Part shown: piece after piece, positions 42,597 through 64,000 of the stretch | Numbering within the stretch: position 1 is the stretch's first letter | Layout of the letters: each line of letters starts with the position of its first letter | Origin: Lingula anatina | Lineage: Eukaryota > Animalia > Brachiopoda | Assembly (NCBI GenBank): GCA_051362555.1 | Contig: CM120649.1 | Coordinates: forward strand, 434,001-498,000 | Length of the DNA: 64,000 nt | Reading direction: 5' to 3' | Made by a program: the position numbers and the translations under genes | The notes under the pieces: model-generated | Databases searched by the model: none | Told to the model about the DNA's origin: nothing | Seen by the model: only the letters and a program-made list of their open reading frames with translations

Positions 42597-42601
<5 letters not shown>

Positions 42602-42734: not shown

Positions 42735-43709
42735 TCATTTATTATTCTGAGGTCGATGTGGAGTGTTCCTGGCTCTGTTGGTAAGACGTCTGGGAATGTT
42801 CAGAGAGGTCTCTATTTTGGATCTGAGGTTAGAGGCGAACAAACGCGTACCCTGGTCAGACAGGTGATATCTATCATCAGCCAAAAGGTGGCCTTGAATG
42901 TTTCCATTACGGAGAAAGTTTGAATTGTCGCAGAAATGTAGGTTGGGGGTGTTACTTTTGCTGATTTCCTGTTTGATAAGAGCATTGCAGATCTCAGTTT
43001 TGGTGTTGTGTTCAACGCTATCCCCGCGGGGTGGTCCCAATGAAATCACAACTTGGGTATGTGGGTTCTTGGTTGCTTGTGTGCTGGCAAGCCTAACCAT
43101 GTTGTTTGCTACATTAAACGGGTTATCATTTTTGATGTCATTCGTGATTTGATGCAGTACTAGACAGTCAGCTTTAGCAGAGTGATGTGTGGTGAGGTAG
43201 TTGGCAGCTTCATTAATGGTGTAAGCTCTTTGAATGGGCACATTTGCTTTGGGAACCAGTCTGTTTCTGTCTAGTTTACCAGTGTGAGAGTTTCCTAGTA
43301 TGAGGACTGAAGGTTTCTGCTGGTGAGCGGCAGTAGTCACTTGTGTAGCCACTGGTGTCCTTGGATGGCTGTGCCCGATGGTGGGGGTCAAGGGAGATGG
43401 TGTGGGTTCAGATGAGGAGGCACCGTGTTTTCCTGGGGTTGTTGGTGGTGTTGATGTTGGGCTTGATGTACAGGCAGCCACTGCTTCTGCGTAGTTGAGG
43501 GGCCTCTCTTTTGAGTTCACATTAGTTGGTGGGGTGGACAATTCTTGAAGTCTTTTCTGGACTTGATCAATTTTCTTATGTGCATCTACTAAGCTATTCG
43601 TGTTGCACTGGGCCTCAATTAGATTTTCAAGCTTGTGCTGTGATTGAAGCAGCTTATCTTGTGAGTCAGACAGTTTATCCTGTATTTCGTCTAGCTTTTC
43701 CAACTTCAT
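42735..43709 (-). CDS. LINE ORF1 (N-truncated): coiled coil, Pro/Thr linker and SGNH/GDSL esterase-like domain
   Basis: Heptad-rich N-terminus. Block I VLILGNSH, block III LHQITND, block V DRYHL. Confidence 0.8.
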   Translation of the reverse strand: MKLEKLDEIQDKLSDSQDKLLQSQHKLENLIEAQCNTNSLVDAHKKIDQVQKRLQELSTPPTNVNSKERPLNYAEAVAACTSSPTSTPPTTPGKHGASSSEPTPSPLTPTIGHSHPRTPVATQVTTAAHQQKPSVLILGNSHTGKLDRNRLVPKANVPIQRAYTINEAANYLTTHHSAKADCLVLHQITNDIKNDNPFNVANNMVRLASTQATKNPHTQVVISLGPPRGDSVEHNTKTEICNALIKQEISKSNTPNLHFCDNSNFLRNGNIQGHLLADDRYHLSDQGTRLFASNLRSKIETSLNIPRRLTNRARNTPHRPQNNK

Positions 43710-43930
43710 TAGGGCATCATTAGCTTTGACTTTGCTGAGATCTACAGCTTTCCATAACTCAGTAACCTTAGTGAGAATGTCAGATTTGTGTATGAACGAA
43801 ATTTAAGCTACTTTTTTTTGAACAGTACTATAATAAGTGTTAGTAGTAGTAGTAGTATAGTATAGGACTATAGTGAAGTAGAAGTACACAATACCACTGC
43901 TATGTACACACGCCCTTATATTATCTTAAA

Positions 43931-44172: not shown

Positions 44173-46254
44173 ATGATACAGAAACTTCTCCCAGAACTGA
44201 CTCTGGTAGGAGTCTTGACAATGACAGTGAGGCGCTCCGCCAAATCCAGGTTACCTCCTGCTATCATATATCCGTCCCGCACATTTCACATCCTCAGTAC
44301 AACAAAGACACGTGATCAGGAACCTAATGGCAAGGAATTCGCAGATGACAAAGGACAAACTGTGCCAAATGTTAAACCTCAGACAGAGAACAATGCTACA
44401 CCAAAGCCTACCCAAATTCTTGACTCCAACAGATTTCAGCCTCCATGGGAAAGTGCTTTGCTTTCTTTACAAGAACTGCAAACAGATGCAGTGAAACCCA
44501 AAGAAACTTTCAAACTGAGGTTAAGGAAAGATTTTAACTTTAGTAAGGAGATGTATCTTAAAGCCCGTAACATTCAGAGTGATGATGAGAAAGAGGTGAG
44601 AAAAAGGTTGAAGCTAATCCTACATTTGTTTATTAATTTAGTTTCACCATGATAATCATTATTATTATATTTCAATACTTGTCAAAAGTCCCCAAGTCAG
44701 GACTGGCTTTAAGGTAAACAAAACTATTTCATGTGTAGTATGGATTATCAGCTTTCCACATGAGCCAATAATCTTTATATTTGAGTTGGGTGGCTTCTAC
44801 ATATGTATATATTTCACTATAAAAGTAACTCTTGATGTTTAAAGGTATAAAAAACACTGAGTCAGGTTGATTATGTGCCTTTGTAAACCAAATGAAATGT
44901 TTCAAAAATATTTAAAACATACCAATTGTATTACAATTGTTGAGTATGATATGCCATTGTATATTCTATATAGTTTTAAATCTAAATAGAATTCTTTCCA
45001 TTTTCATTTCAGTACATAGTGCAAGAATTAACAAAAGGATTTGAACTTATTGTCGACAAAAACCATGAAAGTAATGACAAACCTAACAAGGATAAAGAAA
45101 TTAGCAACAAATTAGACAAACTTCTCAAAATGGGGTGTACCTTGGCTGATATCTTAGAATACCCTTACGTTTTACAGTATGTGAACAGTTCAATAGATGA
45201 CCGCCACGAAAGGCTTCAAAATGCCAACCTCCACGTCCATCCTTTAGGTTTGACTTGGGCCTCAGGGATTACTAAGGCATGCTGTTTGCAGCACTATGCA
45301 GCAATGGGGAACCATACCTCCTTGATGTCGTACTTGGCAGAGAAATTAGGGATCAGTTTGTCTGACATTGTGCCAGAGCATTTTAAACCATTAAAGCCAG
45401 TGGTTGATATGGCTGCCATGGATACAAAGCTTACAATCCTCAGGAGAGCTGGCTGCACTGTAGATTTACTGAAGGCTAAAATTGACCAGGTGAATATGCT
45501 TAAGGTTGACCAAGTGCAGGAATGGTTCAAAAAACACGAGGAAGATTTTAAAACTGCTGGCAATCTACCTGCATTACTGACCGACTTGTTTCCAGTGGAC
45601 TTCATTGAGAACTACTTCAAAATTCCCCATGAAGAGATTCAGCGGCACTGCCGTTATTACAATAAATGTTTGCCTACCACTGCCAGACACAGGATTGATC
45701 TGCCATTTGTCCAGGATGCCCTTCCCGAGGCTGTTCTGGACCAGGGCAGGTCGTTACTGAAAGCAAGTTCTGAGAGGCTTGAGTCAGCTTACCATGGATT
45801 GGTTAGGGAAAGGATCTGGAATAACATCTCCATGAAGGAGGTTTTGTATCAGACACATTACAAACATTTACCAATTATTAAACGGAGTCTTTTTGTTTAT
45901 ATTAAGGAGAATGAGGAATTGTACATACTGCCTGTAGCACCTGCTACTTGGCCTCAGTTTAAAGACAAGTCATATTTAAGGACTGATCGCCCCTCATGGG
46001 AAATACGAGAGAACTTCAGTTATCTGAAATCGAAGGGTTTTAATTTTCGTGACATTGAAGCCTGTCTCTTTATCTTGGATATTCATCCCACCATTTTGTC
46101 CAAGTATGTGGAGGCAGCGCCCTCTAGGGCAGAGCTTCAACCTTACACAAAGTGGGAAAAAACGCCACAAAGATTGCTCAATGCCATCCTTTACTTGAGC
46201 CAAGTGGACAAAAATTTTAGCTGTTTACAAGTTAAAAAGAAAAGCAAGAAATAA
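44173..46254 (+). CDS. mTERF-family (mitochondrial transcription termination factor-like) protein, ~554 aa; exons 44173-44595 and 45013-46254
   Basis: Phase-0 join GAG|GT...AG|TAC. Basic/hydroxyl-rich N-terminus resembling a mitochondrial presequence. mTERF-like helical repeats (LLKMGCTLADILEYPYVL, LRRAGCT, YLKSKGFNFRDIEACLFIL) and a C-terminal LNAILY...NFS reminiscent of invertebrate mTTF/mTerf5-type proteins. AATAAA at ~46289. Confidence 0.7.
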
Positions 46255-46855
46255 TTAAGTAGCAATTGAAATGTTTTTTATTATGTTTAATAAATGTTTA
46301 AAGAATATTTGGAAACGGAAATTGCACCCATATTTCACTTCACATTAGCTGATTTTTTTTTTTTTTAGTTTATTTATAATATGTATTTTTTGTTACATTT
46401 CATGAACTTAAGTATTGTACTTAGACCGAAAAACAATACTGACAGTCAAAAGATTATATTTAAGTGTTGATCTTTTATCATGTGCTTGTAATGTTTCATA
46501 ATGTTATAGTTGTGCTTCCCAGTCCATTCCTTACAGTTCATCTATCATATCATCTGAAGGCAATAAAAATTTTAATAACTGTCATTAAACTGCATACTGT
46601 ATGGATGTTTTCCCTAATCTCTAGCAGGGACAGAGAATTTTCTCATTAGATATTCACAGACATTTTTCTTTATTTTTTGGTTACTTCAAGTGGAAATTTC
46701 TGCAAAATCACCCAGTTTATTCCTAGAAGAGAATGTATTGCCCTATTATACGTAACCATTCTCTGGTAGGAAGCATTCACATCGAGAAGAGCCAAGGTCA
46801 TGTAAGGCCTAAATATGGCAGACCTACATGAAAGGAAGACAGCTTGATCCATTAC

Positions 46856-46982
46856 TGGTCTCTCTGCCTCTCACACGCCTCCCCTCGCGTCGTCCCTGCA
46901 GGGGCACAGTTATTAAATCTTGGCTCAATTCAACCGGTCCAGGGACGACGCGTGGGGAGACGTGTGAGAGGCAGAGAAACCA
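46856..46982. mobile_element. Hairpin MITE (~43-bp arms) with 4-bp TSD TTAC
   Basis: TGGTCTCTCTGCCTCTCACACGCCTCCCCTCGCGTCGTCCCTG / CAGGGACGACGCGTGGGGAGACGTGTGAGAGGCAGAGAAACCA. TTAC at 46852-46855 and 46983-46986. Confidence 0.8.
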
Positions 46983-47149
46983 TTACAGGATTAAGCGGTT
47001 TCTCTTACATGTAGATCCACCATATTTAGTTTGCAACCTTACTAGACCCCGGCTTTTCTCGATGTGAATGCTCCCTAAGTTGGAAGAATTCCGTAAAGAT
47101 TTTTACATGCTTCAAAATATCTAAAATCATTTATTTACAGAAAGGACTT

Positions 47150-47613: not shown

Positions 47614-50031
47614 CTATGTATGTTTGTAAGCAACATTTGTTGGCTGAAATGCTACAAACACGGGGTCAGTTGCCGCGTCAACGGCGTCTGCAGTCACCAC
47701 CTCCACCTCGTGTGTGGGCTGTGCAAAGAGCTGATAGAATGCATGCATGTCCTGATCGTCAGTAACGTGGTGGTCGGCTGCACTGTCATGCTGTGCATTC
47801 TTATGATCTTGATGGCCAATGCTTCCTTTCAAATATGTGACACCAATGCCTTGATTGGGCACTATTTTGGAGAGGTTACTGGTATGATGTGTAAAACCCT
47901 TTGTGATTAAGTGTTTAGATTTGTCCAGATCAACATAAAGACACTTCGTCTGATAAGTGTTCCCCCTGCTTTCATAGTTCAACTGGGACCCCCTTGTTGA
48001 TGAAGTGTTGGCAACACCCTTGTTATATTGTTTCCTACTCCTGTTTAATTTGGTCCCACGATTTCTCAAAAGTATTTTATCCTTGTTCTTTTCGTGCATC
48101 AGACTTATGTGGCGTTTCATATTATGCTTGCTATTCGTCAATTTGCCACACTGTGGGCATTCATGTTGAATTCCCGAGTGAATCTCCACCAGATGGCGGC
48201 GTAGGTTTTGTGCTCTTTTAAATGCCCTTCCGCAAAATTCACACGTCAATGGAGCCTCACCCGTGTGAATTCTTTCGTGTTGCACTTTGTCTACTTTTGA
48301 GCTGAATATCTTTTCACAGTACTGACATGCATGTTTTCCTGTTGCTAGGTTACGATGCTTTGTTACATGTGCACGATATGCAGACTCACGATCAAAATGT
48401 TTTCCACAGAAGTCACATAGCAATGAACGTTTTTTATGCACCCTTTTTACATGTTGTTCAAGGGATCTTGGATTGTTAAAAACTTTCTGACACTCATCAC
48501 ATCTATGCTCACCAAAAGGTCCATGATGAATGATTTGATGAGTCTTTAACCCATAAAGAGTTGTGTAAATTTTATCACACTGAACACACTTGAATTCTTT
48601 CCTTTCTGCGTGGCTTTCCAAATGTTCCCTGACCTTGGCCTTGCACTGAAAAACCAGGTCACATAGTGGACACCTTAATTCGCTGTCAGAATGAGCTCTG
48701 CTGTGTTTCTGAAGTTCAACCTCTGTCAAGAACTTCCTGTCACACCTATCACAATCACATTGCTTCAAGTCACACCTGTCACAATCAAATTGCTTTAAAT
48801 CCTCTGATTGTAAATTTTTTAACTGTGTACAGTCCAATTTGCAGCTTTGTGCTGACAAATTAGATTTGGTGGTCTTTCTCTTTGTTTTTTTCCTCGTGTT
48901 TACTCTTGTCCCTCCTTGGGAATATTTAACTGAAGTTTTTCTTTTCCGATTCTGGTTGGGTTTTCTTGTCTGGATCTTGACAGTGGTGTCATTTTTATTT
49001 TGATTTGCCAGTGCTGGTTGTCTTTTTTTAACCTGTCTACTTTTTCTGTGGGTCCTAACATTCCTATCTAAATAGACACACTTTGTTTTATTATTGTCTC
49101 TAGAGTCTAATTCATGTTCTGTTTTTAGTTCTCCATCTTCGCTTTCATGGCCATTTCCAAAGCTGTCTTTTTCTACAGATTCAAAATTAAGTTCATTTTC
49201 ATCATCCAGCAACTCTCTTTTGATTCCCAGCTCACTGTCTTCGTCCTGTTCGCTATTTCCAAAAGTTTCTTTTACTGCACAATGAGATGGTTTCCCAAGT
49301 TCAGAGTTATCACCAAAAATTTTGTTTACTGATGTTTGTTTTTCAGAGTGCCCATTCTCTCTTTCACCTGTGTCTGCTTTTCCATCAATTTTCACTTCAG
49401 TCAGTTCTTTACAAAATTCTGCTCTTTCACTCTGCGTCATTATAGCATTATGATCTTTGTTTTTCCCATCAAAACCTGTTTCTCCACCCTCGCCATCCCT
49501 TGAGACAACATCAGCTAAAGGCTCTGAGAATGTCCTGCATGGGATGCTAAATTTGTAGTTCTCCAGTTGACACAGATTTTGTGAGCACACAGTTAACAGG
49601 TAATGTTTGTAGCTCTGTGCAATCTCCTGACAAATCTGTAGGTAAGCTGCCTTCTGGTCATTATCAAGTCCCTTTAAGCTGATCACCTTGAAGAACAGAT
49701 ATATAAAAGCATCCTGGGACAGATGAACCTCCTTGTCCACCATCTTAATGTGATCTTCTTTAATGGGTAAACCATAATCTGCCAAGATACATTCCATTTT
49801 ATTGATGCTGCAGTCCAAGTCTCCACTGTCTACAACCACATGGCTTTTATGTTTACCAATTCCACAATTACTCTTGAGATTTAATCTCTTTTGACCTTGG
49901 CCTTGACCTGAGAGGTCAAGGTCACCCACAGATATGTTGGTGTCATTGGACTCTGATGTAGTAGTTTTTACTGCTGAAGGGTGTGTTTGGAACTCTGCAT
50001 GATTATCTTGGCCTGGATCTTCACCCTAGGA

Positions 50032-50090
<59 letters not shown>

Positions 50091-50721
50091 GTAGAAAGCT
50101 TATTATTGAAGAAAAGACTTATGTGCTGTATACATACAGGTCCATTTGTAATATAATTTATGCTAACATCAAATGTAATGCCCCCTTAGCAAAATAATAG
50201 GCCTGTCACAAACTTATTGTAAATTTGCTGCAATTTTCCTAAAATTATTTCAGTCTTGAAAAATTGCTACAAATTATCAGCAATAAATTTTTTTCTTGCA
50301 AACTCCTGCATTTTTCCTTGCTGCAAACATTTAGTTTAGGCAGCAAATTTGCTGCAACAAATCTTTTCATTTTGCTTATGGAATTGTTATAAGTTAAACT
50401 GTTAAACAAACTAAATTCATTACAAGATTTCTTATCTCTCTCTCTAAATATAATGACCTGTAGGTGAAATTAAATATTTCTTATAACAATAACCAAATCA
50501 ACTACTCATTATTATTACTATTCTTAATTTTCTTATGCCAGTTTCTATAGAAAATAACCACAATCAACTGCTCACAATTTACAAAATAACCATATATATA
50601 TATATATATAATTGTAAAAGGACCGTACCTGTCCACCCCCTGTCATTGTGGAGAACAACGCCATGCCCTGGGTCACATTAAAGTAAACCTGGTCACCAAT
50701 TATCCTGCATGGCACCGACAT
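47614..50721 (-). CDS. C2H2 zinc-finger protein (8 fingers); coding exons 50721-50629 and 50025-47614
   Basis: Eight CxxC..H..H fingers, including a TGEAP linker. The upstream exon (acceptor before 50733, ATG 50721, CAG|GT at 50629) splices in frame to AG|GGT at 50025. Confidence 0.88.
50033..50090. repeat. (AAT)n microsatellite abutting the ZNF splice acceptor
   Basis: Directly visible. Confidence 0.95.
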
Positions 50722-51093
50722 CCTAAATAATATCTGAAATTAGATCATTTATTTGTTTATTTTATTTGTTCGTTTGTTTGTTTGTTTGTTTAATCAATTG
50801 TTTAATTGTTTATTTAGTAGTGGTACCATGCTACTGGTATGGCAGATGACAAGCGTAATGAGGTCCTTTTCGCACCGTTTTTGACAGGTAGTCAAACCAT
50901 GCTGTAATTACGCCAAGGGAGAGGCGGCGGGGCGCTCCCTCCCGTAAGTGCGTTTCTAACTATTTGGCTTTGGCCCAATCAAAATGAACCAGGTTAACTG
51001 GGAGTGTTGAGTGCAGGGGTTCTTACCAAGCTATTGATGTGTCTATCTGTCAAGATGGACCAATACCGAGAAGCCCTAATAAATAATTAAGGC

Positions 51094-51180: not shown

Positions 51181-51319
51181 TGTAGTGCCAGGGACAGGTA
51201 GGACCGGCCGGGTAGCTTAGTAGGTAAGAGCACTCGCCCTGTAACAGTGTAAGCGAGGGGTCCCGGTTCGATTCCTGGTCTGGTCGGTGATTTTTCTGCA
51301 CTCACCCCAAATCGCTACA
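51181..51319 (+). mobile_element. Solo LTR containing a tRNA-like sequence (Helenus-like TRIM)
   Basis: TGTAG...CTACA termini with a 4-bp TSD ATGT (51177-51180, 51320-51323). Internal cloverleaf at 51206-51285 with A box TAGCTTAGTAGG and B box GGTTCGATTCC. Confidence 0.75.
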
Positions 51320-51440
51320 ATGTCAACGTTAAGAGCATACTGGTAGTGCTAAATCATTACGATGTAGCGATATATATATAAAAGGAACTGGATGCAGTGT
51401 TTTCAATATCCCGCAATCTCCTGAAATACGTCGAGACAGG

Positions 51441-51719
51441 TAAAGTATTCACTGTGTCTACTTACTGAATTGGTGAGTGATCGCTGTCTATTGTTATGCT
51501 CTTTGATAGAATTGTAGATGGATCGTCAATCTAGACACGTCCGGTACGGAGTGCAGAATATTAGACAATGATCTGTGACAGTTGTGATGTCACAATAGTG
51601 ACGATCTCCTGCAGGGGGCGTGCTGTCCCCACCTGGCCTAGCTCACTCACCTGAGGTGGCCTATCTTGGCACATGAAGAGCAGACCAGGTGGAGGAAGGA
51701 AAAAACTCCGATCACAACA
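51441..51719 (-). repeat. 3' LTR (279 bp)
   Basis: Direct repeat of 62059-62337; reads TGTTG...ACTTTA on the - strand. Confidence 0.97.
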
Positions 51720-51733
51720 TTCCCCCCACTTTT
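51720..51733 (-). other. Polypurine tract
   Basis: AAAAGTGGGGGGAA immediately before the 3' LTR on the - strand. Confidence 0.9.
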
Positions 51734-52496
51734 ATTAAAAAGAGCCGAAAAAGGTAAAGTTTTTTCCCAGTAATAGCAATACATGTTTAAACATGTAAAA
51801 ATATTTTTCAATAACAATGGCTTCCAGCCTCGATCAGACTGACGTTAATGCTAACGACATCACCGAGGTGATAGTCTGACGAGAAAAAATATAGGATTAA
51901 ACTGTGACAACTGTTGATTCAGCAGTTAGTCACATCACTGATACAGTGATAGTCTATCCACAAAAATAAATACTGGAAAGCCAAAAAATGAAATCAAAAA
52001 TTTGGGGACATTCCTAGGATTTGGCGGAAGATCAGAATACTAAATAAATAATAAAATGGAAATAAATAAACACTTGTGCTGGTGCACTGTACCTAGTACA
52101 GAGTAATAAACTGTGCTGCGGTGCTGTATTGCGTCCTGCAATATAGTGCTTCTGAAATACACATATTTGTGTACATAACTTGACAAGTGATAGATATATA
52201 TAAGTGCTACAGGTGCCATTGTGCTCTTGTGCATCTTTGTATCTGTAAATGATATATAAATAAATAATGAATGATAATCAAATAAAGAAATGAATAAGGT
52301 GAAAATGGGCCCACTGATGGTAACTTTCATAGCTCCGATGATCTCCCGGATCAGGAAGAGGAGAGGGGCTTCAGTGAAATTTGAATTTAGTAAGAACTAA
52401 GAAGAAATAGTTTTCATAATTTTCTAGAAATTTTTAAATTGTCCAAAAAAGAAGTAATTTTGTCATATTTTCAATTTTTGTTTTCCAAATTCCTGG

Positions 52497-54788
52497 TTAC
52501 TCCCTTTTATACAAGGAAGTACCATTTTGTGTAGTGATTTTTAAAATATGAGAGACATCCACCCCTCTGTGCCCCGCCAATATCTCTGCCGTTTCATAGA
52601 GAATAAAGGGTGTTGAATGGCCCCCCTTTTTGCGAGCGAAATAGGGGGCATCCGACTCCAAAAGAAGTTTGGAGTCGGGCACCGCCCTAAGTGCTGCCAA
52701 CTGGTGTTTATTAAAGGTGGCAGCAACCCGGGTGAAACCGAAAAAGGTATTTGGTTGCTGCCTTCCCCAAATTTCGAGAAGGGCCTTAGTGCCTGTAAAG
52801 CAGTGAAAATGGATCCTCTGGGACTGCGGAACGCCACACAGTTTCAGATGAAACAAAAGAGATCTTATGGCGAACTCACAGTCTCCAGAGTCTCCCCTCA
52901 CTCCCCTACAGTGCACAACCAGGACATGCCTGGCCTCTAGAAAAGGCAGAAGTCTGTGGAGCAACTCAACCTGATCCTGCCATTTAGACATGGCTTCAGT
53001 GTGGTCGAAACCTACCTCGCCAAAAGCTGTTACTAGCGGCATCTTAACCAACTCTGAGAAAGCCTTAATTGCCTGGTCCAGATTGCCCTGAGAAAGCTTG
53101 CCGGCTAGCCTCGGGTGAAAACCAATAGCTACATACTCGATCCCAGACAGAGTGGAAAGATACCCCTTAGTAGGATATGTCTTGGGATCGCAGTAAATAG
53201 CTACAGTTCCCACCAACTCTACCTCTTTCCCAGAGCAAACAGGAAGCAAACCCTTAAGACCCTCTAACTTGCCAGAGTATGGAAGACCAAAGGCAGCCAG
53301 GGTTCTATCTAGATGATAGTGACTATCGAAAGCTTGCCTCCCTGACTTACTTTGTTCCCCCGCCTCCAGACAAGTTTCTGGCCTGGTGAACCCTTGAATC
53401 CACAACGACCTCTGCTGCTCCGTTATAGAAGCAGACAGCTGTGTCAGGACTCTCCAATCCACCAGGACCCCGACAGAGTTAGCTGGGTATAAGGTGAAAC
53501 GCACTGGGACCGGTTTATTGAGAAATTTACAGAAATTTTCCATGGCAGTAATTTGGATTGAAGAAAAAGTGCCATGGGCTAAATTTAATTTATCTGGAAG
53601 AGCCGAAATGAACTGGTATAAAGTGTCCAGTTCTTTTTTAAAACCAAAAATGAAGAAAGTAAGCATCTCCAGTGCTTTAACCATTACACCCAAGATGTTG
53701 GGCTCAGGATTGGCGCGCTCATCAAAGATAGACGGGACATGCAGCCCCAGCGAATGCTGCCTGAGCATCTGCTCATTAAGTTTCACCCCACACCCAGGGA
53801 CCACACATTGCATCTCGGAGTGATCTTTCCTGGCCCTTTTGGGGTCAGGTCCAACCACTCCGGATGGTGTTTGGCTAGACCTTTTCGGTTCCCTGGTTGT
53901 AGGATGAGACAGCTCCGCTGACTCAACATGCCCATCCACCCCAGACTTTGCAGCAACCAACCCCTTGCCAGGTTTCTTACCACGCCTCCACCAAGGAGCT
54001 CTCTTCTTCCCCTTACGCTTACTGCCCCCCATGGGCTCAGATGGTACAGGCCCAGGAACAGGAACTTGGATCCCTGTTGGAGCAGCAGCTTCAGGGAGGT
54101 GTGAACCTGAAGAAGAGGAGATAGAAAAGTTGAAAGGGATGGCGGTATTTTGCAGCAGTGATGCGCCTGGCATAGGAGTTTCCGGAGCAGCTGGAGGTTT
54201 CACGCTGGATTTGGCCTCCCTTGGTACTCCAAGAAGTCTGTCCTCCTCAATGGAGTCCAGACTGGAGTTGGGGTCGATGTTACTTGACCCCACACCAAGT
54301 TCAGCCTCATCCAATTGCGATTCCACCTCCATAGGCTGGACCGTGCCACTCCCATCGACCACCTGGGTTATGAGTGTAATGTTTGGGTCCTTCCCAAGCC
54401 TGAAATCACGAGTTTTTTGTCCATCGTACTCCACGGAGGGAGCAGATTTCAAAACTCGTGCAGGAGGGGTGAAATTTTTGGGAAGGCGCCAAACATTCTT
54501 CTCAATCCAGTTTTTAGATGCAAGCCCACTAGATTGTAGTTGGTAGGCCACTTGCTGCAACCATGCCAGAGACATGGCATACCTACCGGGAGCACGAAGC
54601 TCCTTTTTATAAATGGTAGCCATCCCAGCCACCAGTGTTTTAAAGTAGCTGCTGTGATCTTCCCCAGGCAGAGCCTGGGCCAAATCCTGGACAAACTGGG
54701 TTCCAGGGACATCTATGGGTGACTCATGCTGTAATCTGAGTGAAGTCTCCTTCACAACAGGTGCTACTTCCGTGATAGTATTGGCCAT
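52497..54788 (-). CDS. Retrotransposon ORF3, 763 aa: low-complexity/basic region, C2H2-like motif, C-terminal TatD-family metallo-nuclease
   Basis: TatD motifs DSHYHLD, GFHP, GEVGFD, VVHCR, HFHCF and ESDAPY, ending in TTQNG.SLY. Also CVVPGC-X11-H-X4-H and a basic KRKGKKRAPWWRRGKK segment. Confidence 0.9.
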   Translation of the reverse strand: MANTITEVAPVVKETSLRLQHESPIDVPGTQFVQDLAQALPGEDHSSYFKTLVAGMATIYKKELRAPGRYAMSLAWLQQVAYQLQSSGLASKNWIEKNVWRLPKNFTPPARVLKSAPSVEYDGQKTRDFRLGKDPNITLITQVVDGSGTVQPMEVESQLDEAELGVGSSNIDPNSSLDSIEEDRLLGVPREAKSSVKPPAAPETPMPGASLLQNTAIPFNFSISSSSGSHLPEAAAPTGIQVPVPGPVPSEPMGGSKRKGKKRAPWWRRGKKPGKGLVAAKSGVDGHVESAELSHPTTREPKRSSQTPSGVVGPDPKRARKDHSEMQCVVPGCGVKLNEQMLRQHSLGLHVPSIFDERANPEPNILGVMVKALEMLTFFIFGFKKELDTLYQFISALPDKLNLAHGTFSSIQITAMENFCKFLNKPVPVRFTLYPANSVGVLVDWRVLTQLSASITEQQRSLWIQGFTRPETCLEAGEQSKSGRQAFDSHYHLDRTLAAFGLPYSGKLEGLKGLLPVCSGKEVELVGTVAIYCDPKTYPTKGYLSTLSGIEYVAIGFHPRLAGKLSQGNLDQAIKAFSELVKMPLVTAFGEVGFDHTEAMSKWQDQVELLHRLLPFLEARHVLVVHCRGVRGDSGDCEFAIRSLLFHLKLCGVPQSQRIHFHCFTGTKALLEIWGRQQPNTFFGFTRVAATFNKHQLAALRAVPDSKLLLESDAPYFARKKGGHSTPFILYETAEILAGHRGVDVSHILKITTQNGTSLYKRE

Positions 54789-54815
54789 ATCTGTAATAAC
54801 AATGAAAAATAAATA

Positions 54816-57800
54816 TTAGATTTGACATTTTACACACTTGTATTTATCAATGTTTATCGCTTCGGTGGAAGTGACATTGATGCAGGATCCATGATACCAT
54901 TCATGACAGTAGTCACATTGAATCATGAATCTGCCCTGGTAAGGCTCCCTGCAAATACAGTATGGTGTCAAATCTTCTTCTTCACTGTCACTCGAGTGCT
55001 GAAATTGTTCATCAGAAGCTAAATATTCTGTAATCCATGAGGGTACATTTCTGTCCCTACAGGGCATGAGCCTGTCATGGTTAATTACAAAGATTGCATT
55101 TTTTAGCTTCACTCGATACAGATAGCCAGATAATTTCTTTACAATGATGGCGGGTCCTTTCCATGGTGAACACAATTTTCGTGATTTGCCTTTAGTTGTT
55201 GCTGTATCCAAAACATAAACCAAATCCTTTTCAGCATAAGGTCTAAGCAGGATTTTAAGGTCATAGTCACGTTTCATGCGTTTTGAGGTTGTTTTTAAAT
55301 TGGCTCTTGCTGTAATATGAGCTAATTTCATTTTTTGTACTAACTTTGAAATGTATTCACCATAGTCAGTTTCTTTTGATTTCAGATTTGGGAACATAAT
55401 TTGGGCTGGAGTACTGACCTCCCTCCCAAGCATGAGCATATTAGGGGTATACCCCGCACTTCTGTTTACAGAAGCACGCAACGCGCCTGCAATTTGCTGG
55501 ACATATTTATCCCATTCACCCTGATTTTTACCCAAAAAACACCGTACGGCATCCATCAGGGTACGATTGAACCTTTCAACCTGTCCATTTGCAGACGGTC
55601 GGTACGGAGTAGTGCGTGATTTGTGTATATGTAAGGCCCTACACAAATCCCCGAACAATTGACTTTCAAAATTCCGTCCCTGATCAGAAAAAAGTTGATA
55701 GGGATAACCGAACCTAGAAAAGAAACAGTCAATTGCTGCTTTCGCGGTCACTTCGGCCGTTTGAGAAGGCAACGGTACGCACTCTACCCACTTTGTGAAT
55801 TGATCAACCATGACCAAACAATGCTCATTACCTTTTGCTGTTTTAGGTAGCGGTCCCAAGAAATCAATATGAACCCGTTCCATCGGAGCACCTGCAACAT
55901 ATTCAGTCAGAGGGACTCTTCCGTAACACCCTTTTTTCTTATTTTTATTACAGATGTCACAACTCAGGACATAATTGGCTATTTCTTTGCTCATATGGGG
56001 CCAGTAGAATTTTTCTTTGATTTTTGTTTTTGTTCTAGCCACTCCTTGGTGACCAGCTGAAGGGATATCATGATGTAATTTGAAAACAGAATTTTTTAAT
56101 GATTCTGGGATGACTAATTTTAGATCTTTGCTTTCCTCTTCAGTTTTGAAAATGACTCCATGATGTAATTTGAATAATTCTTTATTCAGCCAGTAAGTTT
56201 TGGAGATTGGGCTTGATCGGAAGAGTGCACCCTGATCTGGGGTATTCCCTTTGTACAACCACTCTCGTAAAATGTTAAGCTCAGGGTCTTTTGCTTGTTC
56301 AGTTTTTAATTTTTCCATAGAAAAACCCCAACACTGAGGAATATCCGGGTTTGGATTTGACCTCGCCTCCGGACCACACGCATTTATTTCTACATGAGAT
56401 TCCTCAGGTTGCAGAGCGACATCGGTAGAGAGGGCTACAATTTTTTCTAGGAGACAGTAGAAAAGATGTTCCGGACCCGTTTCTCGTCCCAGATTGACTG
56501 TATTTAATGAGGATGTTAGATCGCGTTGACTTTTTGTAGATTTACCAGTAAATTTGGATGACAATTTTTTCTTTTCTGTTAAATTGACCGCTTCGTCGAC
56601 GTCACCGAAAAAACTCCCCCAATTTTCATGGGCTCTGACGCAATAACTACATCCTCCGCAAGGTAAATTTTCCGGCTTTATTCCCGCAATATATTCGTTA
56701 CACGGTGCCAAATTGTCGGGTATTCGAGACAACGAATCAGCATTGCTATGCTTAGCTCCGGCACGATGTTGTACGATCATATTGAATTGCGAAAGCTCTT
56801 CTATCCACCTCGCGAGTTGACCTTGAGGCTCTTTAAACCTCAGTAACCACGTCAGACTTGAATGATCGGTGCGAACGGTAAATATTCGGCCCAAAAGATA
56901 ATACCTGAATTGTCTGGTAAATCTCACGATAGCCAAAAGCTCTTTTCGCGTGGTGCAATAATTCTTTTGTTCGGGAGTTAACGCGTAGCTGCCGTACGCA
57001 ATTACTTTCTCCTCGCCGTTTTGCACTTGTATTAACTCTGCACCAATCGAGTGATTTGAAGCGTCGGTATCTAAAATAAACGGATCGTTTGCGTTTGGTA
57101 ACGATAAGACTGGTGGTGTAGTCAATGCCGTTTTGAGCGCTTCGAAAGATTGAGCTTGATCTGGTCCCCATTCAAAGGCATGTTTACCTTTAATTTTGCT
57201 CAGAGGATGGGATATTTCCGCAAAATTTTTTATAAAAGTCCGGTGATAATTTGCCAATCCTAAGAACCTTTCAACGTCCTTAGAACAAGTGGGTTGTGGC
57301 CAAGAAGTTACAACTTCAATATCCTTAGGGCTCATTTTCATGGTGTTATTAGAAACAATCCGCCCCAGGAATTCAACTTCTTTTTGAAACAAAACGCACT
57401 TTTTTGGCTTTAATTTGATACCGAACTGGCGAAATCTTCCCAAAGCCTCTTTCAAATTTTCTAAATGATTTTCAAAGGACTTCCCCATTACCAAAATGTC
57501 GTCCAAAAATGCCAAAACTGTTTTCCATGTCAACCCCTTCATAAGTAAATTGACTACTCGGGAGAAAGTCGCAGGAGCATTGGTCAAGCCGAAACCCATA
57601 CGGACATGTTCGAATAATCCGTATTTCGTGATAAAAGCTGTTTTATGCCTATCTTCGGGTTTAATTTTGACTTGCCAATACGCAGAATTGGCATCTAACT
57701 TCGAAAACCAGATGTTTCCCGACAGAGTATCTTTGCAATCTTCCATTAATGGTAATGGATACGTGTCTTTGACCGTGACATTGTTCAAGGCGCGATAATC

Positions 57801-59558
57801 GATGCACCATCGGACGGAACCGTCACGTTTTCTAATTAAAACTGGTGCTGATGCCCACTCTGACGTAGACTCTTGGATGACCCCGGCTTTTAACATTTTT
57901 GTTAATAATGCCTCCTCTTCTTGAATAAAACACGCGGGAGTTCGCCGCATACGCGTTTTAAGAGGTTTGGCATTCCCGGTATCGATACCATGCTCAATGG
58001 CACTAAACCGACCAAGGTCATACTCGTCTCTAGCAAAAACATCCTGAAATTCAGATAGAACATTCTTTAATTTTTCACTCTGAATTTTGTTTAAATTCCT
58101 CTTTGATGTTTCATAAACCACTTTTACATGGTTAGGAATTTCTGATGATTTGCTAGCGACGCGTCCAGAAAAATCTTGTCCTGCGTGAACGTCACCAGCG
58201 ATTTGTTTAAAATTCCGCACCTGAGGTGACCCCTTTACAGGTGACTTGAAAATTTCGGTGTTAATTTTTTCTTCAACGAACCTCTTTCCGGCAGATGGGG
58301 CACTTAAAGGGCCCTGAGTACTTCCACCCACCTTCAGAAGTTGTTTACTTTTTATGTCATTTTTAAATCGGGCACTTGTTTTAGGGATATTCTCTAAATT
58401 AGGGGAATTAACACCACAAACCCCAGTAGAATTTAATCCCACAAGCTTTGTCATATTTGGGTGCACACCTGTTCTAGGGATTTTACTAGTTCTAGGAGTG
58501 TAAATTGAATGCTCCACTGGTAAATTGAATCCCACAAGTGTGTTTGTAGAATCCCTACCGGTTCTAGGGACGGCTGATTTTACACGAGTAATTTCAGGTA
58601 ATCCCACCAGTAGATCGGTAGTCATTGTCTCATCAGTGGTACTGACAACACGAGCGCTGGATTGGTCAATTTTAGTAGACCCCCCTCCCACTCGATGTAA
58701 ACCGAAGTGCGAAACAGGGTTTTCTAAAATTTCCGAAACTTCGCAAGCCGTAGCGACCACATGACCCCTTTTTAATTTTTTAAATTGATCTGATGGATTT
58801 AAGAGGCACACGACTGGTTTTGATTTTTCGGACAAGACAGTTCTCGGTATTAGTAGTCCCTCTTCTTCTTTACCCTCGACGACGTATTTTTCTAACTTTT
58901 CGTCGATCTCGCACGTTATCCTTAGTGCTGAATTTGGGGGTACTACTACATTTCGTGAAACGCTAACCCGAGCTATTTTAATGTCTTGTGCACGCGACTC
59001 CGTTTGCTGCATAGGTATGTCGCGCCCTTCTATTTGAATGTAACCCAAATTACAATGCACGCTCGCATTAAACTGGGCAATTAGATCGTGGCCTAACAAA
59101 AAATCGTCATGTATCGGCGCTACTAGAACAGATTCTTTGATTTTGAAACGATCTAGTTCGATGGAAATTGGCTCACAAACACGAGTTTCGATTTGTATAT
59201 CCCCTGCCGCAAGAGTAAGACTGTAATATTTCTTGAGCGATGGTTTATTTTTTATTTGCTCGAATATTTTTTCAGCCATGACAGAAACTTGCGCACCGGT
59301 GTCAACTTTGGCCATTACATGTACACCCGCCACTACCAAAGGAACGAATGAAGATCGAAAAACCCCAAGTTCATCAATTACAGGATTTTGACCACATTCT
59401 AACTCGGAATGATGAGGACGATGCAATGTTTCCATTACGGGGATAGTATTGTCAACGGTTCGTGTTTGAGACAATGAAGTCGCGATGGTTTCACCCGTTT
59501 TGTGACCGGTTTCAGTCGGGTTTCCAAGGTTACGGTCATTTCCCTTGGACCCTTCTAG
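54816..59558 (-). CDS. Gypsy Pol: protease, RT, RNase H, integrase, PHD finger (probably entered by -1 frameshift from gag)
   Basis: VDTGA; WASAPVL, CIDYRALN, MGFGL.NAPATF, FLDD; LDTDAS, ELLA, TDH; H..AGH..CDIC; IDF, SDQG, ERFN; WKGP; YCICREPY...MIQCDYCHEWYHGSC...CVKC. The frame is open from the slippery site to 54816. Confidence 0.96.
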   Translation of the reverse strand, partial: LEGSKGNDRNLGNPTETGHKTGETIATSLSQTRTVDNTIPVMETLHRPHHSELECGQNPVIDELGVFRSSFVPLVVAGVHVMAKVDTGAQVSVMAEKIFEQIKNKPSLKKYYSLTLAAGDIQIETRVCEPISIELDRFKIKESVLVAPIHDDFLLGHDLIAQFNASVHCNLGYIQIEGRDIPMQQTESRAQDIKIARVSVSRNVVVPPNSALRITCEIDEKLEKYVVEGKEEEGLLIPRTVLSEKSKPVVCLLNPSDQFKKLKRGHVVATACEVSEILENPVSHFGLHRVGGGSTKIDQSSARVVSTTDETMTTDLLVGLPEITRVKSAVPRTGRDSTNTLVGFNLPVEHSIYTPRTSKIPRTGVHPNMTKLVGLNSTGVCGVNSPNLENIPKTSARFKNDIKSKQLLKVGGSTQGPLSAPSAGKRFVEEKINTEIFKSPVKGSPQVRNFKQIAGDVHAGQDFSGRVASKSSEIPNHVKVVYETSKRNLNKIQSEKLKNVLSEFQDVFARDEYDLGRFSAIEHGIDTGNAKPLKTRMRRTPACFIQEEEALLTKMLKAGVIQESTSEWASAPVLIRKRDGSVRWCIDYRALNNVTVKDTYPLPLMEDCKDTLSGNIWFSKLDANSAYWQVKIKPEDRHKTAFITKYGLFEHVRMGFGLTNAPATFSRVVNLLMKGLTWKTVLAFLDDILVMGKSFENHLENLKEALGRFRQFGIKLKPKKCVLFQKEVEFLGRIVSNNTMKMSPKDIEVVTSWPQPTCSKDVERFLGLANYHRTFIKNFAEISHPLSKIKGKHAFEWGPDQAQSFEALKTALTTPPVLSLPNANDPFILDTDASNHSIGAELIQVQNGEEKVIAYGSYALTPEQKNYCTTRKELLAIVRFTRQFRYYLLGRIFTVRTDHSSLTWLLRFKEPQGQLARWIEELSQFNMIVQHRAGAKHSNADSLSRIPDNLAPCNEYIAGIKPENLPCGGCSYCVRAHENWGSFFGDVDEAVNLTEKKKLSSKFTGKSTKSQRDLTSSLNTVNLGRETGPEHLFYCLLEKIVALSTDVALQPEESHVEINACGPEARSNPNPDIPQCWGFSMEKLKTEQAKDPELNILREWLYKGNTPDQGALFRSSPISKTYWLNKELFKLHHGVIFKTEEESKDLKLVIPESLKNSVFKLHHDIPSAGHQGVARTKTKIKEKFYWPHMSKEIANYVLSCDICNKNKKKGCYGRVPLTEYVAGAPMERVHIDFLGPLPKTAKGNEHCLVMVDQFTKWVECVPLPSQTAEVTAKAAIDCFFSRFGYPYQLFSDQGRNFESQLFGDLCRALHIHKSRTTPYRPSANGQVERFNRTLMDAVRCFLGKNQGEWDKYVQQIAGALRASVNRSAGYTPNMLMLGREVSTPAQIMFPNLKSKETDYGEYISKLVQKMKLAHITARANLKTTSKRMKRDYDLKILLRPYAEKDLVYVLDTATTKGKSRKLCSPWKGPAIIVKKLSGYLYRVKLKNAIFVINHDRLMPCRDRNVPSWITEYLASDEQFQHSSDSEEEDLTPYCICREPYQGRFMIQCDYCHEWYHGSCINVTSTEAINIDKYKCVKCQI

Positions 59559-59564
59559 TTTAAA
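59503..59564 (-). promoter_or_regulatory. Programmed -1 ribosomal frameshift signal (U UUA AAC plus predicted H-type pseudoknot)
   Basis: Heptamer at 59564-59558, directly before the gag TAG. Stem 1 TCCAAGG/CCTTGGA (59549-59543 / 59529-59523). Stem 2 TGACCG/CGGTCA (59538-59533 / 59508-59503). pol is in the -1 frame. Confidence 0.85.
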
Positions 59565-61453
59565 TGAGTTGGATTCGTATTATCAGCCCGTGCTTGTTGT
59601 TTTTCAGCATTTTTTCTTTGTAAGAATTTTTTATATTTTAGGCAATTTCGTTTAAAATGGCCCTTTCCTTTACAGAAAAAACACACAGGTGTTGTTTTAG
59701 GTGTGAATTTCCGGACCAAGCGTTCAACCATAGATTCCAACTCTGCCATTGAATTAAACTGAATTGTATTCAATTTAGGTGACTGGCTAACGCGTTTTTC
59801 CACGATGGATTCAACAAGTTGTTCTACATTTTCAGTTGGAAATTGCCGATTTTCATCAGCTGTTAGATTTAGAGAACTAATTTGTAATTCATCACGATTT
59901 TTTCGTGTTGGTTTTTGAATATGTGATGATTTGTAGACTTGCTGATAATCCACCATGTAGGTCATTGCCTCGCTGATGCTTGCTGGATGTTTTAAACGAG
60001 TGTAACGCCCGGCATCCTGATCAATGCAGCCCTGACAAAATTTAGATATTGTTTCTTTTGTTCTAAAGGATTCTGATTCATCAGGATAAGCATCTTTGGC
60101 CAATAACAAAACACGGCACAGCCATTTATTCAAGGTTTCGTTGGAAGATTGAACTGCTGTGTGAAATGCCAAACGAGCTGAATCGGGATGTTTTTTAATT
60201 CCGAATACTGAATCCATTTCACTCATTAAGGCTGAATACGTCATGTGTTTATTTGCTCTGAGATTGGTGTTATACAAAGCCAAAGCCTCGCCTTCTAGAC
60301 TCCATAAAAGGTAATCTAGACACTCATTTTCCGACCACTCTTTCACTTGGCGATAACTGTCAAATCTGTTTTTAAAAGACTCCCAGTTTTCACAATTTCC
60401 GTCAAAAGACAATTTTTTGGGTAAATCACTGGGGTCCCCTCTGTCCTTTTTATTTTTAGGACGTACTGTTTTTGGTACTCTAAAATATTCATTTTCACTT
60501 TCATCGCTTTCGGGAAGAAGTGGTTCGTCGCGGAAAACGGGAGACGAAATTCTATGGCGCGTATGATGTTTTTCTATTGAACTCGGCCGGTAATCATGTT
60601 TACGTTCGACTGTATCAGCAACACTATGCTCAACGTTAAGTTGCCGCCGTCCGGGCGTAGGAACATGAATCTGTGGCAGATCATAATTCGAAACAACCCG
60701 ATGGACAGACGGAGCTGGTCGCCGACTACTTTCCCTACCAGTCGGTAAAGAAGTAACAGTCTCGGAATTTATGACACGGCCTGGAGGCTTTATATGCGCG
60801 GAAGAAGTTGTATGATCTTTGTTATCGACACGCAGCCTCTCAATAGGCAGAGCAAAAAGATCGTATTCAGGGTCTAAAGTGGCTGGCTGCGAAGTGAAAG
60901 TTCTGGGGTCCAAAGCTGAGTGAGAACGTAATTTTGTTTTTGGTTTGATAAATTGCTGCTCAGTTGTTGATTTTGAACGAGCTTTTAATTTTAAATATGT
61001 TGGTGGAGAATAAGTTGCAGCTTTTTGAATGTTTTTACTGCGTGAAATTTTTTCTTGTTGATTAATTTCCTCACCCACTTTGAGAATTCTTTCAAATTCT
61101 GCCCTATAGCTTTCAGCAGCCGCTCTTCCTTCATTATGAATGTAGGAAGTCACTTTAGAAGTTTTCATTTTGGGTTTTTGACTTTTTTCGGTGGATAATG
61201 TGCTAGTATCGAGGTCACCCACGTCGACTTCAGATCCGATTTCACTTCTGTGAGTACTGCCAAAAGAGAGATTTTCAATTACATTTGATCCAAGATTGGA
61301 TCCACAAATCTCCAAAATGTTGGATCTGGTCACGGGGATCCCATGTTCTCTAGCATATATTATCCTTTCTGCACGTTTAGGACCTATACCCGGCAGCGTA
61401 ACGAGCTCATCGTAAGTAGCACGATTGACTGGCAACCTTGATGCACTCGCCAT
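59555..61453 (-). CDS. Gypsy Gag, 632 aa, with N-terminal helix-hairpin-helix and C-terminal CCHC knuckle
   Basis: VNRATYDELVTLPGIGPKRAERII (HhH); FDG...WESFKNRF...W...L.GEA...Q..NETL (capsid-like); CFFCKGKGHFKRNC. Confidence 0.92.
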   Translation of the reverse strand: MASASRLPVNRATYDELVTLPGIGPKRAERIIYAREHGIPVTRSNILEICGSNLGSNVIENLSFGSTHRSEIGSEVDVGDLDTSTLSTEKSQKPKMKTSKVTSYIHNEGRAAAESYRAEFERILKVGEEINQQEKISRSKNIQKAATYSPPTYLKLKARSKSTTEQQFIKPKTKLRSHSALDPRTFTSQPATLDPEYDLFALPIERLRVDNKDHTTSSAHIKPPGRVINSETVTSLPTGRESSRRPAPSVHRVVSNYDLPQIHVPTPGRRQLNVEHSVADTVERKHDYRPSSIEKHHTRHRISSPVFRDEPLLPESDESENEYFRVPKTVRPKNKKDRGDPSDLPKKLSFDGNCENWESFKNRFDSYRQVKEWSENECLDYLLWSLEGEALALYNTNLRANKHMTYSALMSEMDSVFGIKKHPDSARLAFHTAVQSSNETLNKWLCRVLLLAKDAYPDESESFRTKETISKFCQGCIDQDAGRYTRLKHPASISEAMTYMVDYQQVYKSSHIQKPTRKNRDELQISSLNLTADENRQFPTENVEQLVESIVEKRVSQSPKLNTIQFNSMAELESMVERLVRKFTPKTTPVCFFCKGKGHFKRNCLKYKKFLQRKNAEKQQARADNTNPTHLN

Positions 61454-62045
61454 TGTACATTTGAAAGCGAAAAATAAATTGATTCAAAATAATTTCACTT
61501 ATCAAAGCACAATACACTACCAAGCTTATAGTGAAATTCGCTATAAATAGATTCCTAAAACGTACAATAAGTTCAAATTTGGAAAACAAAGACTTTGGTA
61601 CACAACGCAATAAATTGAAATCAGACAGAAATTCTATTCAGAATTCCGCCTAAAATACAAAAGAATAAATAACAACAAAACAGAAGTCAGTATTTTATTC
61701 TTTAAATAAACTAAATAAACAAAGAAACCAAAGTATTACGTGTGCACCTCAGTCTTGGAAAATTTCGGTAGAGATCGTAACAATGCACAGGATAATGAGA
61801 CCAACGTCTCCTTTATATCACCGACCTTTTCACGTAAGTACTGAAAAATAACGTAGATGTGCAGGAAAATCAGTGTCTCCTGATGCGGTGACCTTTACGA
61901 TCCAAAATTGAAACAACAATTTTGACCGCCGCTCCACCCAATTATTCAAATGGATGTTAGACAAAGGAATTTCCCGCGCAAACTACTTTCAGCTAGATCG
62001 CAGCGAAAACTAAGCTTTAGGCCCGCAAATATACAAGTTACGAAT

Positions 62046-62057
62046 GCCTTGTCGCCA
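62046..62057 (-). other. Primer binding site (tRNA-Ser-like)
   Basis: TGGCGACAAGG begins 1 nt inside the 5' LTR boundary. It is one mismatch from TGGCGACGAGG, the complement of the tRNA-Ser(GCU) 3' end. Confidence 0.75.
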
Positions 62058-62058
62058 A

Positions 62059-62337
62059 TAAAGTATTCACTGTGTCTACTTACTGAATTGGTGAGTGATC
62101 GCTGTCTATTGTTATGCTCTTTGATAGAATTGTAGATGGATCGTCAATCTAGACACGTCCGGTACGGAGTGCAGAATATTAGACAATGATCTGTGACAGT
62201 TGTGATGTCACAATAGTGACGATCTCCTGCAGGGGGCGTGCTGTCCCCACCTGGCCTAGCTCACTCACCTGAGGTGGCCTATCTTGGCACATGAAGAGCA
62301 GACCAGGTGGAGGAAGGAAAAAACTCCGATCACAACA
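62059..62337 (-). repeat. 5' LTR (279 bp)
   Basis: Direct repeat of 51441-51719; followed by the PBS on the - strand. Confidence 0.97.
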
Positions 62338-62427
62338 CAGGACTGGTGTTTCTCCGAAATGATTCATTGTGCAACGATGAAAAAAAACTCGCGATTTACT
62401 ACGCCTTTTGATACATTTTTTTCATAC

Positions 62428-62538
62428 CTCTGTACTTTCCAGAAAATATACCCTTGAAACAAGGCTTCTCAAACTTCGTGCAGTCAGGGAATCGCACTTT
62501 TCAGCTAAAAAAGGCAAACAAAACAAATAGGCCAACAT
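62428..62538 (-). other. Putative first exon of the zinc-finger gene
   Basis: ATG at 62538, 37 open codons, then a GAG|GTATGA donor at 62428/62427, in phase with the acceptor at 50733. Surroundings are CpG-enriched. Confidence 0.5.
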
Positions 62539-62754
62539 GCAATATGGCCCCTCATCTCGCAGAGACTTATGGTAAATAGGTCATACAAGACAAGACCAAA
62601 CCAAAGTAAAACCCTTCTTTGTTATGATATCGTATGTTGTGCCGACCAGTGAAAACGTAAGTTGCGTTTCCAACCAATGAATTTCTGAAATCACTTATAA
62701 AGCTGTCTGTCATTCATATTTGTTTAGTTTGATTTAGGGGCTAATCGTTAATCG

Positions 62755-62804: not shown

Positions 62805-64000
62805 AATATTGTTCATTTATTAAAACATTTAGGCCTACCACAACTTTCCCTGATTGCATATCGGACCCTATCCCTTGGGAATAAAATTATTGAAACCCAT
62901 TTAATTGATCAGTGCACCTTTCATGTACGATGTAATATGAAAGGTATTTTGGCGAAGTGCAATAATATATTAAGAAATATTAATATTTTTTATTACTGTG
63001 GAAGGAGTTTACACCCATTAGTGACGTGATGATACATACAAGGAAACCGTTGATGAAATTCAAATCGTGTGTACCACACTCAGAATTATAAAAGAGATAG
63101 GGCCTACATGTATGTATTGCATTCAGAAACATACGAATTAACATGAGTGGTGCCTTATTTAAACGCTTCAATGATCATGGTAGTGAAAGATTTGGTCTCT
63201 TCTCAAGAATGACCCGACCCTTTCACTTTTTAATCACTTTTTCACTTTTTAAAGTGAAGATATCCAAGTTCAATGTTTTAAACTCTGCACACACGGAAAA
63301 ATGGGAACCCAGACGTCCGTATTAATTGTAATTATAACTTCAACAATTAGCGTTTAGTATTCTAAAAGAATGCGCAAAAAATAATAATAATAAAATGAAA
63401 TAAAAATTACAATGCATTGTCAATCACCAACACTATATATTTATATATTTTATCAATTTAACATACAGACTTGGTCAAAAAGGTTTACAAATTTGTTTAA
63501 AAATTATCACCTCACATTTTTAAACCATTTTAAACAGCGTTTTTCCAGATATCATATATGACTCTAGTACAGAAAATAACTAAAAAATACCGGTGAACAT
63601 ATACACGTACTTTTTACCATCCACACTGTATTCAAATTTAGAGCATATATCCCCTTCAAACAAAATGTCAACAAAATTTAAAAGACACTTACATACTTAC
63701 ATTACACTTACATTTATCACCAAATTTACACACAATGGACATCAGCATGTGCTTGTCAAAGGTTACGTGTCATATGTAGCGTGTTTCTGTCGCGCACTGC
63801 AATTAACGCCTCTAGAGGGCGCGGCAGGCCTTCATCAAGGGGAAGAATTCTTTCTGGAATTCACATGGGTGATTGTTAGCATGCTATCCATTCATCAGAA
63901 CTTCAATCTTCACTCGCGCATAACCACCAGGAATTTGGGGGGCCAAATAATTTTACCCAATATTTTACGCATTTCTGTTTCACCCCCAAAATAATCTAAA

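Follow-up and report, generated by a model that had tools for sequence, protein, structure and literature searches.

The DNA analyzed here is a window of 64,000 nucleotides from the brachiopod Lingula anatina (GenBank assembly GCA_051362555.1, contig CM120649.1, positions 434,001 to 498,000). Its minus strand carries, from 51441 to 62337, an intact, recently inserted Ty3/Gypsy LTR retrotransposon, which lies in an intron of a C2H2 zinc-finger gene. The features of the locus are listed below, with the evidence for each in parentheses.

62428..62600, minus strand: upstream, likely first, exon of the host C2H2 zinc-finger gene (RNA joint, donor 62427; the limit 62600 is a guess)
51437..51440, plus strand, with a second copy at 62338-62341: 4-bp target-site duplication (sequence)
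51441-62337, minus strand: Ty3/Gypsy element (two identical LTRs, target duplication, primer-binding-site-like and polypurine tracts)
62059..62337, minus strand: 5' LTR, 279 nt (sequence)
about 62045-62058, minus strand: primer-binding-site-like sequence (directly after the 5' LTR)
59555..61453, minus strand: gag ORF (N-terminal helix-hairpin-helix, PNMA/capsid-like domain, CCHC knuckle)
54816..59579, minus strand: pol ORF, 1587 codons from stop to stop (protease, reverse transcriptase, RNase H, integrase, acidic linker, PHD)
54825..54962, minus strand: PHD finger (C4HC3), pol residues 1540-1585 (Pfam, PDB sequence matches, AF2, Foldseek)
54960-54962, minus strand: cage codon Y1540
54939-54941, minus strand: cage codon Y1547
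54924-54926, minus strand: cage codon M1552
54897-54899, minus strand: cage codon W1561
52497..54788, minus strand: ORF3, 763 aa (variable N-terminus, C2H2-like Cys/His motif, helical domain, C-terminal TatD)
about 51720-51733, minus strand: polypurine tract (directly before the 3' LTR)
51441..51719, minus strand: 3' LTR, 279 nt, with no differences from the 5' LTR (sequence)
47614..50733, minus strand: host zinc-finger gene (exon 50629-50733 and large zinc-finger exon 47614-50025)

The element is placed in Ty3/Gypsy by its paired LTRs, short target duplication, primer-binding-site and polypurine tracts, and the order gag, then protease, reverse transcriptase, RNase H and integrase. Within the single pol ORF, Pfam recovers in order an aspartic protease, the reverse transcriptase, RNase H, an integrase zinc finger, the integrase core and the PHD. 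Pol overlaps gag in the -1 frame, and a slippery-type heptamer stands immediately ahead of the gag stop, from which we infer gag-pol expression by -1 frameshifting. The N-terminus of gag (59555-61453, minus strand) matches a helix-hairpin-helix DNA-binding motif (E 2.3e-7), and one relative (P0055) carries an HHH_3 annotation. Three other identities were rejected. A chromovirus does not fit, as Pfam gives no chromo match and the C-terminal domain is a PHD by sequence and by fold; nor does an errantivirus, as ORF3 is TatD by Pfam and by fold and not an envelope protein; nor does a Ginger1 DNA transposon, which would have terminal inverted repeats without a reverse transcriptase, whereas we observe direct LTRs together with one.

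The empty allele, lacking the insertion, occurs in DNA contigs of two of the four runs, from two studies (X1, X3). DNA depth within the element, which is not to be read as a copy number, exceeds that of the flanks several-fold, and the long DNA contigs mostly diverge by <2% from the copy in the window. We conclude from these observations that the family is young and multicopy and that the insertion is polymorphic.

The original prediction held that the integrase ends in a PHD finger of the H3K4me3-reader type, and the first part is confirmed: a C4HC3 PHD occupies minus-strand 54819-54965, as quoted there, two residues short of the pol stop at 54816-54818 (Pfam E 3.5e-8; 33.8 bits, where the cut-off is 24). 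The proposed aromatic cage is also present, since Y1540, Y1547, M1552 and W1561 align with Y7, Y14, M20 and W29 of PHF2, which are the cage residues of that protein (PMC9898751). The closest PDB sequences are PHF8, PHF2, KDM7A, CXXC1, BPTF, PPS and DIDO (E 6e-15 to 5e-12). Likeness to BPTF and PHF2/PHF8 therefore stands, but the inclusion of the ING class was loose, the sole ING-family match in the PDB, YNG2, ranking last of 42 at E 6e-4. In the AlphaFold (AF2) model of the integrase tail, pLDDT is about 95 across the finger, and Foldseek superposes this model on the PHF2, BPTF and DIDO fingers with rmsd values of 0.8-1.5 A, several of the targets being complexes with H3K4me3. Most of the top structural matches are established H3K4me3 readers (BPTF, DIDO, PPS, PHF2). 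The finger thus shares with those of PHF2/PHF8/KDM7A, CXXC1, DIDO and BPTF the C4HC3 fold, about 50% identity and the Y/Y/M/W cage of PHF2. It differs from the PHF2-type fingers in being carried by mobile DNA, in having its binding predicted, and in the pocket for Arg2, where the position of the R2-contacting E22 of PHF2 is Gln in 52/57 homologues, while D1556, two residues further on, is kept in 52/57. Sequence, predicted fold and conservation together support assignment to the H3K4me3-reader type, and binding of H3K4me3 by the finger is predicted with good confidence.

With the integrase tail as query, 65 proteins were retrieved, 58 of which are Gypsy pols with an annotated PHD, including proteins named from molluscs and a sea urchin (Nucella, Pinctada, Ostrea, Haliotis, Lytechinus). 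The recurrence of the fusion in 58/65 matches led us to reject a misassembly that joined a host PHD gene to pol. Among the 57 of 64 homologous pols with a complete finger, M1552 and W1561 are invariant (57/57 each) and position 1540 is Tyr or Phe in 55. The second cage tyrosine is not conserved, being Tyr or Trp in 20/57 and Asp in 29/57; TAF3 is a known case of a cage that contains aspartate (PMC3241642). Mean identity of the homologues to the window sequence is 0.74 in the integrase core and 0.59 in the PHD, against 0.19 in the poorly conserved acidic linker that separates them. In a codon comparison of ten pairs, pN in the PHD is 0.09-0.22, the same as in the integrase core, against a pS of 0.55-1.12, which is near saturation. 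The PHD is under purifying selection across the whole clade.

As a query containing the tail might favor similar fingers, the search was repeated with the integrase alone. It gave 150 matches, 91 of them long enough to judge, and 14 of these carry a PHD, with the Trp in 13/14 and the Met in 12/14. The PHD-bearing share follows identity to the query, from 6/8 matches at >=55% to 0/27 at <40%. In a midpoint-rooted FastTree tree of 138 integrases, built from relatives only, with no named reference elements and with partial or too-short matches excluded, we observe a clade of 70 (support 0.997), in which 68 members have complete fingers and in two the finger is truncated or degenerate. A single pol with a PHD (P0107) lies outside this clade, so a second gain or a swap of the domain is possible. 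A search with the PHD alone returned six proteins, four of them Gypsy pols, and did not identify a host donor gene; a scan of a viral contig collection found no relative.

A control for the specificity of the cage came from genome G001, a bacterial bin with many transposon contigs that we take to be DNA of a host animal. About 100 contigs with Gypsy-type integrases and 44 PHD matches were seen in this bin (L002-L007, L009-L011, L037-L068), likely as host-animal contamination. Met plus Trp is present in 13/13 PHD rows from Gypsy integrases (12 loci; five of the 17 loci scanned gave no match) versus 2/17 other PHDs (20 of 29 such matches fetched, three unmatched). The Trp before the His occurs in 17/17 of the other PHDs and is therefore not diagnostic alone. 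The two exceptions with Met plus Trp belong to ORFs that resemble DNA transposases in having CxC4 or Ulp1 domains. Its full cage sets the finger of the present element apart from most other PHDs of G001. The CxC4 or Ulp1 ORFs resembling DNA transposases (L063:1-3726, L066:4319-6499) have PHDs with an F/Y-M-W cage, followed by an SprT-like domain.

Downstream of pol, ORF3 contains a TatD domain (Pfam E 2.3e-27), which Foldseek matches to TatD/YcfH nucleases at E 3e-13. The TatD ligands HxH, E, H, H and ExD are all present, in agreement with the alignment to YcfH, and these metal-ligand motifs are invariant in 18/18 aligned ORF3s; a C2H2-like motif precedes TatD in 15 of 18 relatives scanned. 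ORF3 is likely a metal-dependent nuclease. Matches to PPR repeats were rejected as summed weak repeats. A splice-acceptor-like tract lies just past the pol stop and before the ORF3 ATG, likewise in several relatives, and the LTR carries a donor-like site; such a spliced message is not among the RNA joints listed, where depth is low. ORF3 is likely made from a spliced message. ORF3 (52497-54788, minus strand) has a CpG observed/expected ratio (o/e) of 0.38 and a GC content of 49-50%, compared with 0.99 and 40-41% in gag and pol; the ORF3s of relatives are GC-richer than their own integrases, yet not CpG-depleted.

The PHD and TatD domains tend to occur together. Where the fetched relatives extend far enough downstream, ORF3 lies 3' of the PHD (7/7); four PHD-less relatives, two of them with short tails, lack it. 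In G001, 12 of 102 integrase-bearing contigs have a PHD and all 12 of these have TatD, the absences of either domain being weakened by the shortness of the contigs. The association is strong without being exclusive, since a TatD, although a more distant one, also occurs in one PHD-less element of this set (C1247). The PHD is a feature of a whole, widespread lineage and not of a single element, and it co-occurs with a TatD third ORF; neither point appears in the original prediction. A second, shorter type of ORF with a zinc finger plus TatD (500-590 aa) was seen in L047:7518-9032, L032, L048 and L034, and in L047 it comes after a PHD-less Gypsy integrase.

The RNA joint between 50733 and 62428 (CT..AC, that is, GT-AG on the minus strand) was found in 4/4 runs with 10 reads in all, which places the element within an intron of the zinc-finger gene. 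These are raw runs of the same species label from other individuals, and they are silent on the splicing of the inserted allele. Without the insertion the intron is 793 bp long; the element sits in it in sense orientation, and from the splice donor at 62427 it is 86 bp to the target duplication and 90 bp to the edge of the element. An ATG in frame occurs at 62538 in the upstream exon, with a CCAAT motif about 140 bp further up, at 62674-62678. The original prediction had put the target about 90 bp inside a putative first intron; the distance and the intron are borne out, and it is likely that the intron is the first, given the absence of RNA depth at 62877-64000 (four RNA runs) and the CpG-undepleted DNA. 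An internal upstream exon is possible, because an acceptor-like tract lies near 62507 in the exon, whose 5' end is unmapped (16 RNA loose ends fall outside those itemized).

CpG o/e is 0.78-0.93 around the empty site versus 0.38 in the host DNA overall, and within the gene body, at 49941-50440, it drops to 0. CpG-undepleted DNA marks unmethylated 5' regions in animals whose gene bodies are methylated. The RNA joint and the CpG evidence agree with the earlier claim that the element adjoins a promoter. Nevertheless, 7-9% of host windows within the 64-kb window reach the CpG o/e of the insertion site, so this single site is consistent with targeting but does not establish it; it is the one mapped site, and was noticed because it fits the targeting idea. 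Nine related loci were checked for LTR pairs with flanks and none was found, the repeats being at contig ends. The loose ends of the DNA runs on the element (24 listed, 170 further) gave no usable list of flanks of other copies. RNA loose ends gave two possible ones of 30 letters each (X17 at 62337, X13 at 51721), which were excluded from the counts as too few and biased to transcribed DNA.

Other features near the gene include a splice-donor-like site at 62655-62665 (plus strand) beside the CCAAT box, which hints at a divergent gene sharing the promoter, with no RNA support seen; a 422-aa ORF at 44986-46254 (plus strand), with no Pfam match, which converges on the zinc-finger gene; and a long imperfect inverted repeat at 46767-47077 that appears in many RNA loose ends and is likely a MITE-type repeat.

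We hypothesize that after protease processing the PHD would remain attached to the integrase through a flexible acidic linker, and that its Y/Y/M/W cage would grip trimethylated K4 on the tail of histone H3. The finger would anchor the integration complex on nucleosomes a short way downstream of active promoters, and binding of H3K4me3 would bias insertion to promoter-proximal, unmethylated chromatin, where new copies may escape gene-body methylation and be transcribed. For the reading as a whole, in which a PHD retained on the integrase would bind H3K4me3 and shift insertion towards promoter-proximal nucleosomes, we see the chances as roughly even; if H3K4me3 is bound, promoter-proximal targeting becomes somewhat the better bet.

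The same finger might instead bind H3K4me3 for general docking, for integration efficiency, or for the expression or protection of copies, the site then reflecting open chromatin or chance. The single mapped site, with 7-9% expected on the CpG measure, would fit this, and purifying selection indicates that the finger matters while leaving its purpose unspecified. PHDs also occur in CR1, Penelope-like and DNA transposons, for which a role in restructuring chromatin was suggested (PMC8557442), and post-integration effects have been raised for the analogous MBD Copia elements (PMC6673714). Against this, the finger occupies the integrase's C-terminal end, the slot in which chromodomains target insertion (PMC6673714), and a tethered H3K4me3-binding PHD suffices to retarget an integrase (PMC8149907). 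We regard an untargeted role as unlikely, although it deserves serious weight.

Less probable again, and in our view improbable, is that the cage reads another methyl-lysine ligand (H3K4me2, or a non-histone or element protein), with any targeting then being to something other than H3K4me3 promoters. The PHD of PHF2 does bind a methylated non-histone protein, VRK1 (PMC9898751), and an acidic pocket residue can favor dimethyl-lysine, as in PYGO1 (PMC3241642); half of the clade has Asp at the second tyrosine position, and the equivalent of PHF2 E22 is Gln. The copy in the window, however, has the full Y/Y/M/W cage, and its top structural matches are mostly readers of H3K4me3.

Targeting associated with RNA polymerase III or tRNA, as in Ty3, might also have set the site, since a tRNA-like unit (51205-51287; ARAGORN, Rfam 42 bits) lies 150 bp from the target. 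This unit is highly repeated, with a DNA depth of about 3300 versus about 45 in the flanks (run X1), so proximity by chance is easy; moreover, the element went in downstream of the unit, unlike Ty3, whose insertions fall upstream of Pol III genes, and the PHD would be left unexplained. We consider this very unlikely. The repeat itself (51205-51322, plus strand), called tRNA-Tyr by ARAGORN, is likely the head of a tRNA-derived SINE. Finally, that the PHD is a recently captured passenger without function for the element is hardly credible: no supporting evidence was found, and the idea is already largely refuted by the presence of the PHD throughout the 70-member clade and by its constraint, which equals that of the integrase core and is not shared by the neighboring linker.

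Returning to promoter-proximal targeting by an H3K4me3-binding finger, a close parallel is with chromoviruses, which also have a histone-mark reader on the integrase C-terminus of a Gypsy element. That positional parallel, drawn in the original prediction, holds, but the target compartment does not, since chromodomains send elements to heterochromatin, targeting having been shown by Gao et al. 2008, as cited in PMC6673714. Here the reader is a PHD and not a chromodomain, the predicted mark is active H3K4me3, and a TatD ORF3 is added. The CopiaMBD elements likewise captured a host epigenetic reader (PMC6673714), although a different one and in a different superfamily. RAG2, which localises to H3K4me3 via its PHD (PMC5175335), and an engineered fusion of the ING2 PHD to the integrase-binding domain of LEDGF, which redirected HIV-1 integration to transcription starts (PMC8149907), resemble the case proposed here in that an H3K4me3-binding PHD brings a DDE recombinase or integrase to active promoters; in those systems the PHD is on a partner or an engineered tether, whereas here it is natural and within the integrase itself.

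PHDs are a recognised accessory of transposons, in CR1, Ginger1, Rehavkus, Chlamys and Chlamydomonas elements (PMC2836005, PMC8557442), and in Ginger1 (Ginger1-9_HM) the PHD is even C-terminal to a Gypsy-like integrase (PMC2836005). Together with the established targeting by chromodomains, this means that the general idea is not new. Nonetheless, the published PHD-bearing elements (Ginger1-9_HM, CR1-like LINEs, Rehavkus, Chlamys PLEs, Chlamydomonas elements) fall among DNA transposons, LINEs, PLEs or algal elements, unlike the present LTR element with its reverse transcriptase. For ORF3, the closest comparison is with bdelloid LTR elements, which have non-env, nuclease-type and other enzymatic ORF3s (DEDDy exonuclease, GDSL esterase), typically made from spliced RNA; TatD has no mention in the main text of that work (PMC5408684). 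The window also contains a non-LTR retrotransposon (38535-43802, minus strand), with a weak GDSL/SGNH esterase-like ORF followed by an endonuclease and reverse transcriptase in two overlapping frames.

Neither a PHD-integrase Gypsy clade nor a TatD ORF3 in a retrotransposon is described in any title or abstract opening retrieved from the literature searched. Mollusc, annelid and metazoan Gypsy surveys have no main-text match for PHD or TatD, and the accessible text of PMC5890265 and PMC3601003 has none for the terms searched; a prior mention is possible in Repbase, most subscription papers and supplements, which were outside the scope. What appears to be new here is a PHD-integrase clade of Gypsy elements that also carries a third ORF with a zinc-finger-like motif and a TatD domain. 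Reading of H3K4me3 by its PHD is likely, and promoter targeting is plausible, resting on one site.

Of the known means by which retroelements choose their landing place, reader domains on integrases are the clearest, and the natural cases in the literature searched direct insertion to silent chromatin. A clade whose H3K4me3 cage is intact would represent the counterpart in nature of the engineered PHD tethers and of RAG2, and its TatD ORF3 adds an enzyme class that we did not find reported as retrotransposon cargo in that literature. Put most broadly, and only tentatively, this may be an ancient animal Gypsy lineage that mirrors the chromoviruses, in which an H3K4me3-reading integrase would aim copies at active promoters and a co-inherited TatD would process integration intermediates or counter host defence, and which would still be inserting into the 5' ends of genes in molluscs, echinoderms and other marine invertebrates. 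Such targeting predicts promoter-proximal insertion polymorphisms, and with them variation in gene regulation, among oysters, abalone, whelks and sea urchins.
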